From the NCBI GenBank assembly GCA_046483495.1, contig JAWODC010000091.1, positions 1 to 24,856 of the forward strand: a stretch of 24,856 nucleotides of DNA, read 5' to 3'. Of this stretch, positions 12,001 through 18,000 are shown piece after piece. Each line of letters starts with the position of its first letter. Position 1 is the first letter of the stretch. The position numbers are program-made. This stretch comes from Desulfobacterales bacterium (lineage in GTDB: Bacteria > Desulfobacterota > Desulfobacteria > Desulfobacterales > UBA5616).

Positions 12001-15000
12001 GTGGGCCTCGGATTATCCGTTGCCTACGGGATCATAAAGGAGCACAACGGCTCAATCAAAGTGTCATCCACGCTTGGTGAAGGCACTCAGTTCACATTTT
12101 CGCTACCCGTGTAATCAACAAAGGGGATGTTCCACCGGCCGATGTTGGACCGACATCCCCCACATCTGCAAAAAGCGGCTTCCGACGCATGATAAGCATG
12201 CGGGGACTCGAGAACCAAACAGGCAAGATGGAGAACCTCATGAATCTTCCCAACATTCTGATTGTAGACGATGAATTGATCCTGCGGGAATCACTGGCGG
12301 ATTGGCTCTCAAGAGACGGATACAAAACCGATACCGCAGCCAGCGGTGAAGAAGCGCTGAATAAAATAAAAGATACCCGTTATGATGTTATGTTTGTCGA
12401 TATTAAAATGCCGGGAATAAGCGGCCTGGAACTTCTAAAAGAAGTGAAAAGCGAAGATCCTGATGTGGCGGTAGTCATGATCACCGCCTACGGTTCGATT
12501 TCAACCGCCATCGAGGCGATGAAAGACGGCGCCTCCGATTATTTGTTGAAACCATTCGATCCGAGTGAACTGGGCATTCTGGTGGATAAGATAATGGAGC
12601 ACCAGGCCCAGGCACGTGAAAATCTATACTTAAAGGAGCAGTTTGAAGATCGGACCCGTTTCGAGAATATCATCGGGCAGTCCCCGGCAATGCGGCATGT
12701 TTTCGAGTTGATACGGGATATCGCCTCCTCGGATGCAACCGTTCTCATCACCGGTGAAACGGGCACGGGCAAAGGCTTGGCCGCAAAAGCGATTCACACG
12801 TCCAGCCCCCGCTGCATCGGCCCTTTCGTGACGGTAAACTGCGGCGCAATACCGGAGCACTTGATGGAAAGTGAGCTGTTCGGCCATCAGGCGGGTGCAT
12901 TCACGGATGCAAAAACGACCAAGAAAGGCCGATTGGAATTGGCCCACGGCGGCACGTTGTTTCTCGATGAAATCGGTGAAATTTCAATGCGGATGCAAAT
13001 CGATCTGCTGCGGGTGCTCGAAGACCGGGTGTTTTATCGGGTCGGGGGTACCCAGCCTCTGGACATGGATTTCAGGGTAATCGCAGCCACGAACCGGAAC
13101 TTGAAAGAAGCGATAAAAAAAGGGGATTTCAGGGAGGATTTATTCTACCGCCTCAACGTGATCAGCTTTGAAATGCCGCCGCTTAAAAACAGAAAGGAGG
13201 ACATCCCCCTGCTTGCCGATCATTTCCTGCATCGCTACTGCCAGGAGACTAAAAAGCAGATAGACGGCATTCACCGCGAGGCCATCGATGAAATGATGCT
13301 CTATGATTGGCCCGGGAACGTACGCGAACTGGAAAATGCCATCGAAAGGGCCGTGGTCATCGGAAAAGGACGGCGCATAAAGGCGGAGGACCTTCCGATA
13401 CTGGGCACGGAATCCGCCAAACCACAAAACGGCACACTCAAAGAAATGGAAAAAAACTTTATCGAACAGACCCTGAGGACCCACAACTGGAATATAACGA
13501 AGTGCTCGCAAGTCCTGGATATCGACCGTTCGACGCTCTACAGCAAGATCAAGCGCTACGGAATCCGGCAATAGATGCTGCCCATCCAGAATTTTTTCAT
13601 CTTCGGATGGACCTTAGACAGGGAACGTTTGCCGTGAAAAAAATCCTCATCTCACCCATAGGAGAATTTGATTCGAATTTGTTGAAAGAAGTCGGCAGCG
13701 CACTTTATCGGATATTCGGGTATGGTTATCGTATAGAACCTTTGATATCCGATCTTTCCTTTGCCTTCAATAAAAGCCGTGACCAGTACCATTCGACTCA
13801 GATTTTGAAACGGCTTGCCTCGATGGCGCCCGACGGATGCCTCAAAATACTGGCCTTGACACGCGTTGATTTATTCATCCCCATTTTAACCTATGTTTTT
13901 GGAGAGGCGCAATTGAATGGAAAGGCTTGCATCGTTTCCACGTCGCGGTTAAATGAGGACAATCTGACCGTCGAACCGGAAAAGGTCTTCAAAACCAGGG
14001 TCGTCAAGGAGTCGCTTCACGAAATCGGCCATACATTCAATCTCACGCATTGCCGAAACACCGATTGCATCATGAACTTCTGTCGAAGCGTCAAGGAGGT
14101 GGACGCCAGAAAAGACGTTCTCTGCCGATACTGCAAGGTTCTTTTGGAAGATCAGAAAAAGCGTCTGGATTCCGCGGCCGCCCCCCAAAGCTGAATCTTC
14201 ATGCCCGGGTGTCCGGCATCCGTTCCCAAAGATCCGGCTGGGCACTAACTTCGGAGAAAGGCCTTCGTCAACCGCTCCCAACCGATTTCGGGTACACAGC
14301 CAAAAATATCCGATGCCAGTTCCCCGCCGTCCGCGGCCAAAGGGCCGGAATATTCTTCGATCAGTCCGATGATCTTTTCGACCTCGTGTGAAACGAATTT
14401 TTTGGCCTGTTCACCGATGACCATATTTTTCAAATCCTTGCGAAGATTCTTCGGGTGAACTCTCATCACCCAACCATCGGCATAGGGTGATTGCGCCGCC
14501 AGGCGCGGCTGCCTCAACAGTTCGACATTTACGCTGGTTACGACACCGGATATGGGGGAACGGACATTCGCTTTGCAGGTGCCGCGCTTGAGCCGAATAT
14601 CGGGGCGATTCCGCTTTACGACCTGCCCGATGAGCGGCGCTTCGATTTTATCCAAAGGTCCGAGAACCCGGGTGATAAAATCATCGAACCCGATACGGAC
14701 TTCACCCTCCTCTTCGATTTTCAGCCATGTATGGCCTTCGTGCAAATAAAATCCCTGCGGCATTTTAATCCCCTTGATGTTCATGACATCTACAGGCTGC
14801 GCAACCGTATGCACCGTAAACTCATCGGTAAAGAACTGGTCAAATTCGCAGGATGCACATTGATAATCGTCGAAGCACGGCCGGAAATTGATTCGCTGCT
14901 TCATTGAATGAATGCAAGGGCGGCTGAAGGGGGATGACGTTCTCTGCATAATATTGTCTTTCCAGTACACGATATTGCCCCGCTTTCCCGAGGGCGGCAC

Positions 15001-18000
15001 CCCTTCTTTTTGTCGATTCCGGTTTTCCCAGGCCAGGTTGAAAAGGATCTTGTCATAGCGGCAGCTTGGACAATCGTATTCCGTACGACAATATTTTTTC
15101 TTGACGACCCCGCTCTGCATCCAAATGCACGGATAATTTTTTACATAATCGTTTTTGCTGATGCGGTTGATTTGCATATCGCCATCCTTTGCGTCTGTAT
15201 ATGAAACCGGCATACTTCAGGTTTTCAAGAAGGTTCTTGTCAAGTTTTCCCAGCCGACTTCCGGAACATTGCCGTAAACGTCACCCCCCAAGAAGCCGCC
15301 ATCCGCTGCCAGCGGACCTGCGGCCGCTTCGATCATGGTCTCCAAGGTCTCCACCTCCCGGTTTATCCAGCTGAAGCATGATGAATCCACCATGAGTCCG
15401 CCGACGGATTTTTTTATATCCGGTGTGTGAACCAAAAAAAGCCAGCCGCCCCCATAGGGATCATCATTGGCCTGTTCGGGGTTTTCTCTGATGGCGGCAT
15501 TTGTTTCGAGAATAACGCCCCCAACCGGCGCCAGAACATCGGCGAGCTTGTTCTTGCGCTTCAGACCCCATCCCGGCTTACCGGGATTGAGTTCATGCCC
15601 CATTAAAGGGAGGTCGAGCGCATCGGCTTTTCCAAGGATTTTCAGCGCAAAATCGTCGAGACCGACCCTGAGTGTTCCGCCGCTCTCTATTTTCGCCCAC
15701 GCGTGTCCCTCGTGGAAATAGTAATCCTCAGGCACCCTGAAACCTTTTATTTGCTGTACGTTGTGGGGTTTGCCCGTAATTTTGGGCGTCAATATGTCTT
15801 CAAACAATTGATCGAAATCACAGGTTCGGCAGTGATAGTCATAGGCGCAGACACGATGTCCGATACGGTTGGTCAAACTGTGGCGGCAAAGTCTTTCAAG
15901 TCCCGGCTTTTTGGCCATGGCTTCCTGCCAACTGATTCGTTTGCCCCTTTGGACCTGCAAAGCCATGCCCTGGTCGTATTTGCAGGTCGTGCAATCATAG
16001 TAATTGTTGCAGTTTTTAAATTCCACCACCCCGGCTTGCATCCAAATGCAGGGATTCTGGGAGGTCGCTCCTTTATCGGGGGTGATTTTCCAAACCTGTC
16101 CACCGAGCACGGAATCGATTTCACGCTTTTGCGAAGGTTCTTGTCCAGGCGATTCCTTTCGATAGGTGGACCCGTAACCTAATCGACTTCTCCTTTTTTT
16201 TTCGAGGTCTTCCATGATGTTGCCTCCTTCAGGTTGGTGTTCATCAAGAAGCGGCATTTCCCGGTCCGGATCGGCATTTTCGCCTTTTGGATGAACACGC
16301 GTTAATTAATTTTTCGGAAACCGATCTTGAGCAACATCTTGAGCAACTTATATGCCAGGTCTGCACAATCCAATTGTCAATTAATCAAGTAACTATAATC
16401 TATGGAAATATAATACGTGGAGAACGCTGGTGCTTTTTATGGCAATCCATTGACGCACATCATGGAAAAAGATTTGTGGGATTTCACGACACCGGCCGGC
16501 ATTTAAACGATGTTATGGACATTTTCAGTATTTCCCATTTCAAACCCGATCGGCGTTTCAAAATTACGGCTTGCATGAAATTACATTAAATTAGCGGGTT
16601 ACATGACTATTCGGTCTGAAAGCACCGAGCGGGGGATAATGAACGCCGAACTTGTTGGATTTTTCAACAGCACTGTTGGAAAAAACCGCATTACAAGCAA
16701 CCGGCAGTCGGTGGAGTCCATGGTGTCCATCCGGAAATATGGACGAAGCCGGCGATCTTTGTTACGATATCGAAGCATTCATTCTTTAAGGAAGCGTATG
16801 GAACTTTCAGCGGCAAAACCCAAAATCATTGTGCTCTGCGGCCCCACGGCCGTCGGCAAAACTTCCGCCGCCGTTCAGGCCGCCCTTGCATGCAACGGCG
16901 AAATCATAAATGCCGATTCGATGCAGGTCTACCGGTATATGAATATCGGCACGGCCAAACCTACAGCTACGGAGCGGAAGCGGGTGCCTCATCATCTCAT
17001 CGATGTCGTCGATCCGGATGAAACCTTCGATGCGGCGAAATTTGCAGCCTCTGCCCGCAGCATCATCACCCGTTTGACGAACGAAGGCAAAACGGCTTTT
17101 GTGGTAGGAGGAACCGGATTGTACATCAAGGCGCTCATCCAGGGCCTTTTCGCCCCCGGCTCATCGGACCCGGCCGTTCGAAAACAGCTGAAGCGGGAAC
17201 TTGCATGCCACGGCCCGGCGTATCTATACCAAATGTTAGCAGCCGTCGATGCCGAAACGGCCGAAAAAATCCATCAAAACGATACCCACAGGCTGATCAG
17301 GGCCCTTGAAGTCTTCAGGCTGACCGGACATCCCATTTCAGTTTTGAAGCAGGCGCACGAATTCAAAGACCACCCTTACAACTCCCTGAAAATAGGGCTG
17401 ACCACGGATCGGCAGACGTTATACCATCGAATCGATTCGCGGGTGGACGCCATGATCCGCGCCGGTTTTGTGGAGGAGGTCCGAACGTTGCTCGAAAAAG
17501 GATACGACAGCCGATTGAAATCCATGCAATCGATCGGCTACCGGCACATGGCCGCATACCTCGAAGACCGCCTCTCATATGAAGAGGCGGTAAGAACGAT
17601 GAAGCGGGACACCCGCCGATATGCGAAACGACAATTTACCTGGTTTAACAAGGATGCTTCGATTCGATGGATGAACTGCGAGTATATTGAAGATATTATT
17701 CAGCATATAACGTCGTTTTTGTCCGTTCAGAAGGTCAGCCGGTGTCTTCAGGATCGCTTCAGCACTTCATAGAGCTTGGGATAAGTGCAGACTTCATAAT
17801 ATTTTTTGGTGGAAAAGCCCGTTATGCGATATTTTTTCAGATCGATGATCGGGATTCGGGCCTCGCGTACGATGACGTGCTGGTATTTGCCGGAAACGGT
17901 GGGAAATTTGCCGCCGTAAAGTGTATACCGGTCCTCGACGATCGTGTAATCCAAAACTTTTAGATCGATTTCTTCGCGAAGCTGTTGGAATCCGGCTTCA

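Follow-up and report, generated by a model that had tools for sequence, protein, structure and literature searches.

What do two tandem genes labelled glycine cleavage H protein do, if their products are not lipoyl carriers? The window analysed here is a stretch of 24,856 nucleotides from a Desulfobacterales bacterium (assembly GCA_046483495.1, contig JAWODC010000091.1, positions 1–24,856 of the plus strand; all coordinates are contig positions). Both ORFs, of 332 and 310 amino acids, are present as the survey's finding described them.

15217..16215 (-), gene A: Cys8 domain, lysine-less GcvH fold and tail, 332 aa
14245..15177 (-), gene B: paralogue of A, 310 aa

A and B are 38% identical, and B carries an insert of 15–17 residues that separates its two Cys4 units. 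The pair is unbroken in 80 of 80 close loci, which are the best matches from a single order and are not independent of one another. An alternative in-frame ATG of A at 16257 would yield a protein of 346 amino acids; the start at 16215 is preceded by AGGAGG. RNA contigs from four runs in three studies overlap parts of A and B, but are silent on strand and level and may include DNA. A single such contig (14881–16165) bridges the A/B junction, a kind of evidence from which a shared transcript is not demonstrable. A literature search of openly accessible main texts yielded no description of the family, which Desulfobacterales proteome tables might nevertheless list.

A GcvH fold without the lipoyl lysine

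The C-terminal half of each protein consists of a GcvH fold followed by a tail.

15391..15720 (-), GcvH fold of A, Asn222 at the lipoyl site (Pfam GCV_H at aa 166–275)
14386..14745 (-), GcvH fold of B, Thr200 at the lipoyl site (Pfam GCV_H at aa 145–264)
15220..15390 (-), C-terminal tail of A (helix, DGG loop, helix), conserved
14248..14385 (-), C-terminal tail of B, conserved

The Pfam match is confined to these ranges, as reported earlier, and the fold matches the T. thermophilus H protein with a TM score of 0.88 by target. The column of the lipoyl lysine, which had been called nonconserved, indeed holds an asparagine in A (Asn222) and a threonine in B (Thr200); of 80 rows each, lysine fills it in 4 for A and 8 for B (12 of 160 overall). 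The glutamate three residues ahead of this site is replaced by lysine in A and B, and an arginine two residues ahead is conserved in A (Arg220) and invariant in B (Arg198). The conserved tail of 55 residues occurs in neither GcvH nor LbpA.

Could A and B nevertheless be lipoylated H proteins of glycine cleavage, as annotated? The GCV_H match and the fold would suit this, as would the lysines that A has one residue to each side of the site. Set against it are the residues at and before the site, the rarity of lysine, and scores of 58–74 bits compared with gcvH cut-offs (TIGR00527/NF002270) of 116–117. As the survey had also noted, GcvP and GcvT were not found in the genome, whose assembly is 96.7% complete. 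The annotation is refuted by sequence and deserves almost no credence. The earlier claim that the two are not lipoyl carriers is borne out by the Asn/Thr site, the scarcity of lysine and the lack of GcvP and GcvT; judged by their residues, A and B evidently carry no lipoate.

The Cys8 domain

The N-terminal domain contains eight cysteines in two units, both seen in A and in B as previously described.

15982..16050 (-), Cys4 unit 1 of A (C56–C78; C56/69/75/78), motif CX12CX5CX2C
15820..15888 (-), Cys4 unit 2 of A (C110–C132; C110/123/129/132), motif CX12CX5CX2C
15061..15129 (-), Cys4 unit 1 of B (C17–C39; C17/30/36/39), motif CX12CX5CX2C
14848..14916 (-), Cys4 unit 2 of B (C88–C110; C88/101/107/110), motif CX12CX5CX2C

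This motif occurs in just 3 of 6207 stop-to-stop frames of at least 150 amino acids in the genome, two of the three being A and B. The eight cysteines form the conserved core of the family down to 23% identity. Histidines had been listed as invariant too, but His241 drops from the 95% set when A is added and His90 is tyrosine in many distant members. Histidines are thus ruled out as family-wide metal ligands, which leaves only the cysteines as candidates for that role. Their spacing suggests that the unit binds a metal or an Fe-S cluster. Genomes sampled from the order contain the domain in 78 of 151 cases, so that the former estimate of about a quarter was too low; for the phylum the figure is 68 of 301.

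The AlphaFold2 model of the Cys8 domain is confident (pLDDT 87.7). Nothing significant was retrieved for the domain from PDB sequences, by Foldseek, or by VIA-align against 48,161 chains, among which no Fe-S fold was matched; this blank result does not prove a new fold. A Pfam search with 24 members likewise gave no significant match, the best being zf-CHY at E 0.002, below the cut-off. An Atlas feature search with the domain had a top score of 0.82 to unnamed clusters, which serves as a lead only.

A sigma-54 promoter and a conserved cassette

Upstream of A are a -24/-12 promoter and two palindromic sites.

16343..16357 (-), sigma-54 -24/-12 promoter of A-B, the sole TGGC-N7-TTGC match within the window
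16475..16491 (.), proximal palindromic enhancer TGTNG-N7-CNACA, conserved in 60 of 65 loci
16653..16669 (.), distal enhancer copy, top-scoring site genome-wide

The promoter precedes A in 64 of 69 loci and occurs on the opposite strand in none of the 69. In the 60 loci that conserve it, the enhancer has 7–8 of 8 matches, as compared with 24 of 1300 shuffles, and is located 106–134 nt upstream, which fits the 80–200 bp criterion for activator sites. Conservation thus establishes these predicted elements as the promoter and enhancer of A-B. Among 219 promoter-like matches genome-wide, A-B has the single strong pairing of enhancer and promoter. Ten other top enhancer-like sites of this genome lack a fitting promoter within 300 nt, except for one loose match 294 nt away; the idea of a larger regulon in this genome was rejected on these results.

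Three genes lie on the plus strand next to the pair.

10609..12114 (+), cytoplasmic histidine kinase: Rossmann-like N-domain (weak Pfam match), PAS, HisKA, HATPase
12189..13574 (+), NtrC-type sigma-54 response regulator (REC-AAA-HTH)
13607..14194 (+), archaemetzincin (peptidase M54), convergent on B, zinc motif and Cys4 intact

The Pfam match of the kinase N-domain has an E of 0.001, and the best PDB match an E of 0.2, so that NAD binding is at most putative. As the genome encodes 24 full sigma-54 activators, the role of the adjacent one is inferred from linkage. The archaemetzincin, missing from the earlier gene list, separates the regulator from B and scores above its family cut-off (157.6 vs. 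145); HExxHxxxxxH and Cys4 are kept in the M54 of all 38 loci checked. Where the flank is long enough, M54 is found beside A-B in 40 of 63 loci, the activator in 39 of 54 and the kinase in 31 of 48. Across 151 genomes, the Cys8 domain and M54 are both present in 71, both absent in 66, and discordant in 14 (7 each way).

The Hdr/Flox/DsrC neighbourhood

The Hdr(Sec), MvhD(Sec), Flox-like and DsrC genes that the survey had placed at the locus are all present.

5871..10313 (-), HdrL-type HdrA/GltD fusion with in-frame UGA (Sec) at 10134–10136; a conserved neighbour, at most a candidate partner
1975..5808 (-), MvhD (in-frame UGA), three Flox-like Fe-S/FAD subunits and DsrC, downstream of hdrL

HdrL has been proposed as a route for NADH electrons towards sulfite/DsrC (PMC2702500, PMC5947623). 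The link to Flox-Hdr had previously been drawn from adjacency. It gains from an HdrA-specific match in 24 of 43 close loci with 9 kb downstream (absent nearby in 19), but the hdr genes are convergent or divergent and not co-transcribed with A-B. For reference, this genome of 4.19 Mb has six HdrA places. Among 20 distant loci, hand-picked out of 93 matches, seven have an HdrA-specific match. Kinase-hdrA intergenic regions contain an enhancer-like site in 2 of 19 cases and a loose promoter match in 2 of 19, ruling out direct sigma-54 control of hdrL for most loci. The apparent output of the kinase/activator pair is A-B and not the hdr genes. A weak search of 2287 candidates (proteins of 582–2000 aa) turned up no fusion of A to HdrA and no longer fusions. 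The link of A and B to the two-component/sigma-54/archaemetzincin cassette and to receiver-domain fusions (below) is tighter and better tested than that to Hdr.

The presence of dsrC and hdrL raises the question of whether the cysteines stand in for lipoate, making A and B sulfur or disulfide carriers in DsrC/Hdr chemistry, with the job of LbpA but no cofactor. LbpA is a GcvH homologue that the sHdr system requires (PMC6067878). Four cysteines whose spacing is fixed and occurs twice resemble metal ligands, however, rather than a flexible arm, and the Cys8 domain is also found on receivers and TPR proteins remote from Hdr. The genome has, moreover, a separate lysine-bearing protein. This third GcvH, regarded as genuine in the survey, is better read as LbpA-type, since it is surrounded by a lipoate ligase, two radical-SAM-like ORFs (these and the ligase read by eye from N-termini) and an HdrD-like gene. 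We consider a sulfur-carrier role very unlikely.

Fusions and relatives

Parts of A and B recur in other proteins. HoxU/NuoG-like 2Fe-2S/4Fe-4S subunits that follow NuoF-like genes have a Cys4 unit fused to them directly C-terminal to their 2x[4Fe-4S] domain (loci L125, L131 and L133); H fold and tail accompany the unit in some of these fusions and not in others. The same fusion was read by eye at L132. Inside HmcB/HmcC-like operons (L128 and L130) there are H folds that lack the lysine and have the tail, some of them preceded by a hydrophobic segment at the N-terminus; this setting is also seen in 6 of 20 M54-only loci. Context of this kind, together with the HdrA linkage, is what supports the earlier proposal that the GcvH fold is a docking module for redox complexes.

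The HoxU/NuoG-like fusions and the HdrA linkage would also suit A and B as true Fe-S electron carriers or subunits, each with two clusters, that exchange electrons with HdrL/Flox or HoxEFU-type complexes. CX5CX2C is a spacing known from [2Fe-2S] sites of the adrenodoxin type and from some radical-SAM sites. Glycines are usual around such clusters, but the CX5C loop of the Cys8 domain has none. The searches above gave neither an Fe-S Pfam match nor an Fe-S fold, and fusions to receiver or TPR domains are atypical of carriers; we regard this reading as decidedly improbable.

Fusions to signalling proteins form a second group. A receiver domain is joined to Cys8 in 8 of 30 representatives, which were chosen for unusual architecture, and to the H fold with tail in an Atlas cluster of 83 members. 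TPR-Cys8 genes face NarL-type two-component pairs. Neither an H fold nor M54 accompanies the receiver- or TPR-fused Cys8 proteins in 42 of 42 loci of at least 6 kb, which counts against the adaptor reading proposed below, since it would suit a purely signalling role just as well.

These fusions, the co-occurrence with M54, and A-B being the sole clear target raise the possibility that A and B are feedback parts of the signalling cassette, modulating kinase, activator or protease, with the hdr vicinity reflecting shared physiology only. A circuit that regulates nothing but itself would have no evident purpose, though, and the Fe-S subunit fusions and HmcBC-like operon position point to redox complexes. 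Receiver fusions suit a regulated adaptor equally. We rate a feedback role as unlikely, if worth keeping in view.

Proposed function

Our tentative preference, held at a little under even confidence, is that A and B are inducible metal-binding adaptors of redox complexes and the output of a small sigma-54 circuit. With its Rossmann-like and PAS domains, the kinase would sense a cue in the cytoplasm, possibly the redox or the nucleotide status, and phosphorylate the adjacent activator. The activator, assigned by linkage, would then bind the TGTNG-N7-CNACA enhancers and open the -24/-12 promoter of A-B. Each Cys4 unit may hold a single metal centre, for which Zn and Fe-S are about equally likely. 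Docking to proteins would be the task of the lysine-less H fold, together with the newly conserved arginine and the tail; this module would tether the metal domain to oxidoreductase complexes of the flavin/Fe-S type. The docking target at this locus would most likely be HdrL-MvhD-Flox-DsrC, whose electron flow might be tuned or gated post-translationally. More speculatively, the co-inherited archaemetzincin probably resets the system through proteolysis.

A bolder version appears improbable to us. In it, CX12CX5CX2C would represent a previously unknown fold that binds Fe-S, and the lysine-less H fold with its tail would serve anaerobes as a general docking plug for inducible redox-sensing or electron-gating subunits on flavin-based bifurcating complexes (HdrL-Mvh-Flox, HoxEFU/NuoEFG-like, HmcBC-like), with the archaemetzincin as off switch. 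If this docking-plug reading were true, energy conservation in anaerobes, sulfate reducers among them, would be subject to an unrecognised layer of post-translational control. If A and B gate HdrL/Flox-type complexes, they offer a handle on the regulation of electron-bifurcating enzymes in sediments.

Glycine-cleavage or lipoate-carrier calls in the genomes of sulfate reducers are inflated by a common mis-annotation, which this analysis puts right. It also defines a cysteine domain without family or fold match and places a bacterial archaemetzincin subfamily in a genetic context for the first time. With promoter, enhancer motif and candidate activator in hand, the system is directly testable.

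Comparison with known systems

A and B share the barrel-sandwich fold of GcvH (PF01597, TIGR00527; PDB 1onl, 3ab9) over ~120 residues (Foldseek E 9e-11, 20–29% identity). They differ from it in lacking the lipoyl lysine, in having a Cys8 domain and tail, in sigma-54 control, and in belonging to a genome without GcvP/GcvT. ABITRAM/Simiate may be a precedent for a lipoate-free H fold, although the paper checked on this protein makes no mention of the fold. NF045810 ('GcvH-related protein') and TIGR03077 ('GcvH-like') are also divergent GcvH-fold families and match A and B weakly (E 1e-8); membership is rejected at 33–36 bits against cut-offs of 144–150.

LbpA of the sHdr system (PMC6067878, PMC10332631) likewise has a GcvH fold and often two paralogues. 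It is genetically tied to Hdr-type complexes; A and B may have such a tie, with HdrA nearby in 24 of 43 loci but not co-transcribed. LbpA has a strictly conserved lipoyl lysine, two single cysteines and its own ligase (PMC6067878). A and B, in contrast, have no such lysine and carry eight cysteines in a separate domain, and their companions are a kinase, an activator and a protease; no lipoate ligase or LipS1/S2 lies beside them in the window or among recurring neighbours. The neighbouring archaemetzincin is a member of its known family (PF07998, NF033823), with its subfamily tied to the sigma-54 cassette.

NtrC-type sigma-54 circuits (AtoSC, ZraSR, and those of D. vulgaris, PMC3333781) similarly combine a kinase, a REC-AAA-HTH activator, a palindromic enhancer and a -24/-12 promoter. 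Regulator sites in D. vulgaris are inverted repeats of 4–6 bp spaced 3–8 bp apart (PMC3333781, which does not mention glycine-cleavage proteins), and the A-B enhancer, with 5-bp arms 7 bp apart, fits this pattern. Unlike these circuits, the one here targets two proteins not described before and includes an archaemetzincin in its cassette.

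Genes A and B

Genes A and B adjoin on the minus strand, and their products share 38% identity.

15217-16215, minus strand: gene A, 332 aa (Cys8, GCV_H, tail)
14245-15177, minus strand: gene B, 310 aa (Cys8, GCV_H, tail)

In each protein, two CX12CX5CX2C units form the eight-cysteine N-terminal domain (Cys8) that the survey had described; a Pfam GCV_H match follows (residues 166-275 of A, 145-264 of B), and then a conserved C-terminal tail of ~55 residues that is absent from GcvH and LbpA. The motif is scarce, occurring in 3 of 6207 long frames of the genome and twice only in A and B. 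In an alignment with H proteins of known structure and with this genome's lysine-bearing H-type protein, A has Asn222 and B has Thr200 at the lipoyl position. Across 80 related loci this column holds lysine in 4/80 A rows (2 gaps) and 8/80 B rows, bearing out the reported loss of the lysine, while the residue two positions earlier is arginine in 74/80 and 80/80 rows, respectively. At the level of alignment, A and B are thereby shown to lack a lipoyl site. Both score far under the gcvH cut-offs; a search of the genome (96.7% complete) turned up no GcvP or GcvT, as the survey had also noted. With a GCV_H match on one side and these findings on the other, it is hardly credible that A and B are glycine-cleavage H proteins as annotated. 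RNA-library contigs of three studies overlap parts of both genes, which weakly suggests expression.

B was modelled with AlphaFold2 (pLDDT 80.7, pTM 0.59), and the C-terminal part of the model matches H proteins (E 9e-11). In a confident model of A's Cys8 domain, made from a 76-row alignment (pLDDT 87.7), a unit of short helix, loop, and helix beginning at CxxC occurs twice. Six cysteines are invariant in this alignment and two are at least 90% conserved; the histidine of unit 2, previously called invariant, is not conserved to this degree. Pfam, PDB sequences, Foldseek, and VIA-align (48,161 chains) gave no match for the domain; the best Pfam score, for zf-CHY, was under cut-off. From cysteine spacing and conservation we infer metal binding, with Zn and Fe-S as equal candidates.

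A conserved cassette

The best 80 of 374 confirmed relatives in a genome-contig collection are mostly titled Desulfobacterales, Desulfobacteraceae, or Deltaproteobacteria, and all 80 loci hold the tandem pair. Where enough flank is present, genes convergent on B encode an archaemetzincin (40/63), a sigma-54 response regulator (39/54), and a kinase (31/48). The archaemetzincin, left out of the survey's finding, lies between regulator and B.

13607-14194, plus strand: archaemetzincin (M54), zinc motif intact, over family cut-off

The zinc motif is kept in 38/38 loci examined. Profiles for Cys8 and M54 found both in 71 of 151 genomes of the order, Cys8 only in 7, M54 only in 7, and neither in 66; in 301 genomes of the phylum, M54 occurs in 60 of 68 genomes with a Cys unit and in 55 without a detected one, counts that are descriptions rather than tests because kin genomes are not independent. 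A and B are shown to be inherited together with kinase, activator, and protease. Such co-inheritance would suit A and B as feedback parts within the cassette, a reading that we consider unlikely, if less so than the remaining alternatives, beside their relatives' fusions to redox subunits.

The archaemetzincin subfamily occurs in 115/301 phylum genomes and often lies behind a sigma-54 regulator, also where Cys8 genes are absent. The kinase N-domain (10609-11007, plus strand) appears Rossmann-like, has a GG motif in 27/27 aligned sequences and no clear family, and is possibly a nucleotide sensor.

Apparent sigma-54 control of A-B

A -24/-12 element precedes A in 64/69 loci (opposite strand, 0/69; background, 0.008 per 400 nt). 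A palindrome, TGTNG-N7-CNACA, lies 106-134 nt farther upstream, with 7-8/8 matches in 60/65 loci against 24/1300 shuffles; 62/65 loci have a second copy.

16343-16357, minus strand: conserved sigma-54 -24/-12 promoter of A-B
16475-16491: proximal enhancer palindrome, TGTNG-N7-CNACA
16653-16669: distal enhancer palindrome, the genome's best-scoring site

Among 219 promoter-like matches in the genome, A-B has the sole strong enhancer-plus-promoter pair. The element also precedes Cys-unit genes or operons in 7/20 distant loci (L115, L117, L119, L120, L121, L128, L129). Since the A-B sites are conserved, whereas the kinase-hdrA intergenic region has an enhancer-like site in 2/19 loci and a loose promoter match in 2/19, A-B rather than hdr is the apparent target. 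The adjacent regulator, in a genome with 24 activators, probably activates A-B.

Inspection of the close loci (L004-L083) by eye shows an AT-rich ATCAA-N4-TTA-like stretch, located 30-50 nt before the -24 element, that resembles the consensus of an IHF site. The miaA ORF (16603-17772, plus strand) is over-extended at its 5' end, its Pfam/NCBIfam match beginning near residue 75, and the distal enhancer falls within the extension. A 786-aa ORF (17748-20108, minus strand) has no Pfam or NCBIfam match.

Redox complexes and signalling fusions

The large gene past the kinase is an HdrA/GltD fusion (hdrL), followed by MvhD, three Flox-like subunits, and DsrC.

10134-10136, minus strand: in-frame UGA of hdrL, Cys-like position, putative selenocysteine
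5605-5607, minus strand: in-frame UGA of mvhD, Cys-like position, putative selenocysteine

Passages of two papers propose the HdrL type as a route of NADH electrons to sulfite and DsrC, and do not mention glycine-cleavage proteins (PMC2702500, PMC5947623). HdrA-specific matches lie in 24 of the 43 close loci that have 9 kb of downstream sequence and in 7/20 distant loci, compared with six places in the own genome as a whole. The proposed Hdr partnership finds support in this context, but HdrA is missing nearby in 19/43 close loci and A-B is the apparent target of control. Despite DsrC close by, lipoate-free sulfur carriage seems very improbable.

The 20 distant loci, hand-picked from 93 matches to span families, include 14 with a Pfam-confirmed sigma-54 regulator and 12 with M54. 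In four, a Cys4 unit is fused behind a 2Fe-2S/4Fe-4S HoxU/NuoG-like subunit by NuoF-like genes (L132 by eye); in three of these, H fold and tail follow the unit.

L125:4809-6089, L131:5496-6788, L132:7538-8809, L133:7723-8484: HoxU/NuoG-like third subunits ending in Cys4

These NuoE/NuoF/HoxU-like complexes have Cys4, in three of them plus a lysine-less H fold, instead of a catalytic domain at the end of the third subunit; POR/IOR-type genes adjoin three of the four. Two distant loci have Cys4-H genes in HmcB/HmcC-like operons with extra lysine-less H folds that start with a hydrophobic segment. Comparable arrangements, with a different Cys4 module, recur in 6/20 M54-only loci (partners read by eye).

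L128:8123-8818, L130:7183-7875, L229:10134-10829: lysine-less H folds that start with a hydrophobic segment, encoded immediately behind HmcC/NrfD-like genes

These three had no NCBIfam match and presumably occupy, as HmcD-like proteins, the place of HmcD. A second, distinct and unnamed N-terminal Cys4 module, starting CPFL, also occurs on lysine-less H folds.

L215:8179-9093, L221:8013-8936, L222:1152-1865, L224:9206-10126, L226:5856-6611; proteins P0199, P0206: CPFL-type Cys4 plus H fold

Searched with a profile, 1.84 billion representatives yielded 605 matches. Among 30 of these picked for length or match position, eight are receiver-Cys8 fusions and four more have TPR matches without a receiver. 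Their loci (80 metagenome loci, 42 of at least 6 kb) have neither H fold nor M54; they adjoin NarL-type pairs or a kinase and sigma-54 regulator, several before NuoE/NuoF/HoxU-like genes. In the Atlas, H fold and tail are fused to a receiver domain (83-member cluster). Both halves of A and B are thus modules moving between two-component proteins and Fe-S oxidoreductases.

The loci L135-L189 (for example L151, L167, L177), possibly of Chloroflexota by Atlas label, share a conserved housekeeping region in which a stand-alone TPR-Cys8 gene faces a PAS kinase/NarL pair. At L193:410-2377, a histidine kinase with a [FeFe]-hydrogenase-like Fe-S input domain is upstream of a sigma-54 regulator and receiver-Cys8 gene.

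In our leading, still tentative, reading, A and B serve as adaptors that are inducible, bind metal, and modulate redox complexes (HdrL-MvhD-Flox at this locus): the neighbouring activator would induce them through the sigma-54 promoter and enhancers, and H fold and tail would dock. True Fe-S carriers, suggested by the Fe-S subunit fusions, are improbable.

Comparison with known systems

At L001:1444-1866 (own genome, G000:C29 119482-136045), a lysine-bearing LbpA-type protein adjoins HdrD-like Fe-S, cytochrome/membrane, lipoate ligase, and radical-SAM genes, along with two gene sets that resemble 2-oxoacid dehydrogenases. The sulfate reducer, though it has no GcvP/T, carries an LbpA/LipS cluster here.

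In the open literature, searched mainly through listings, we found neither the family nor the cassette described. A and B are a real, mis-annotated, undescribed family with a cassette partly built from known parts. GcvH and LbpA are closest, and as both are defined by the lipoyl lysine (PMC6067878, bioRxiv 10.64898/2026.10.01.755906, PMC10332631), A and B are members of neither. The cassette circuit belongs to the NtrC type, which has been mapped in D. vulgaris (PMC3333781).
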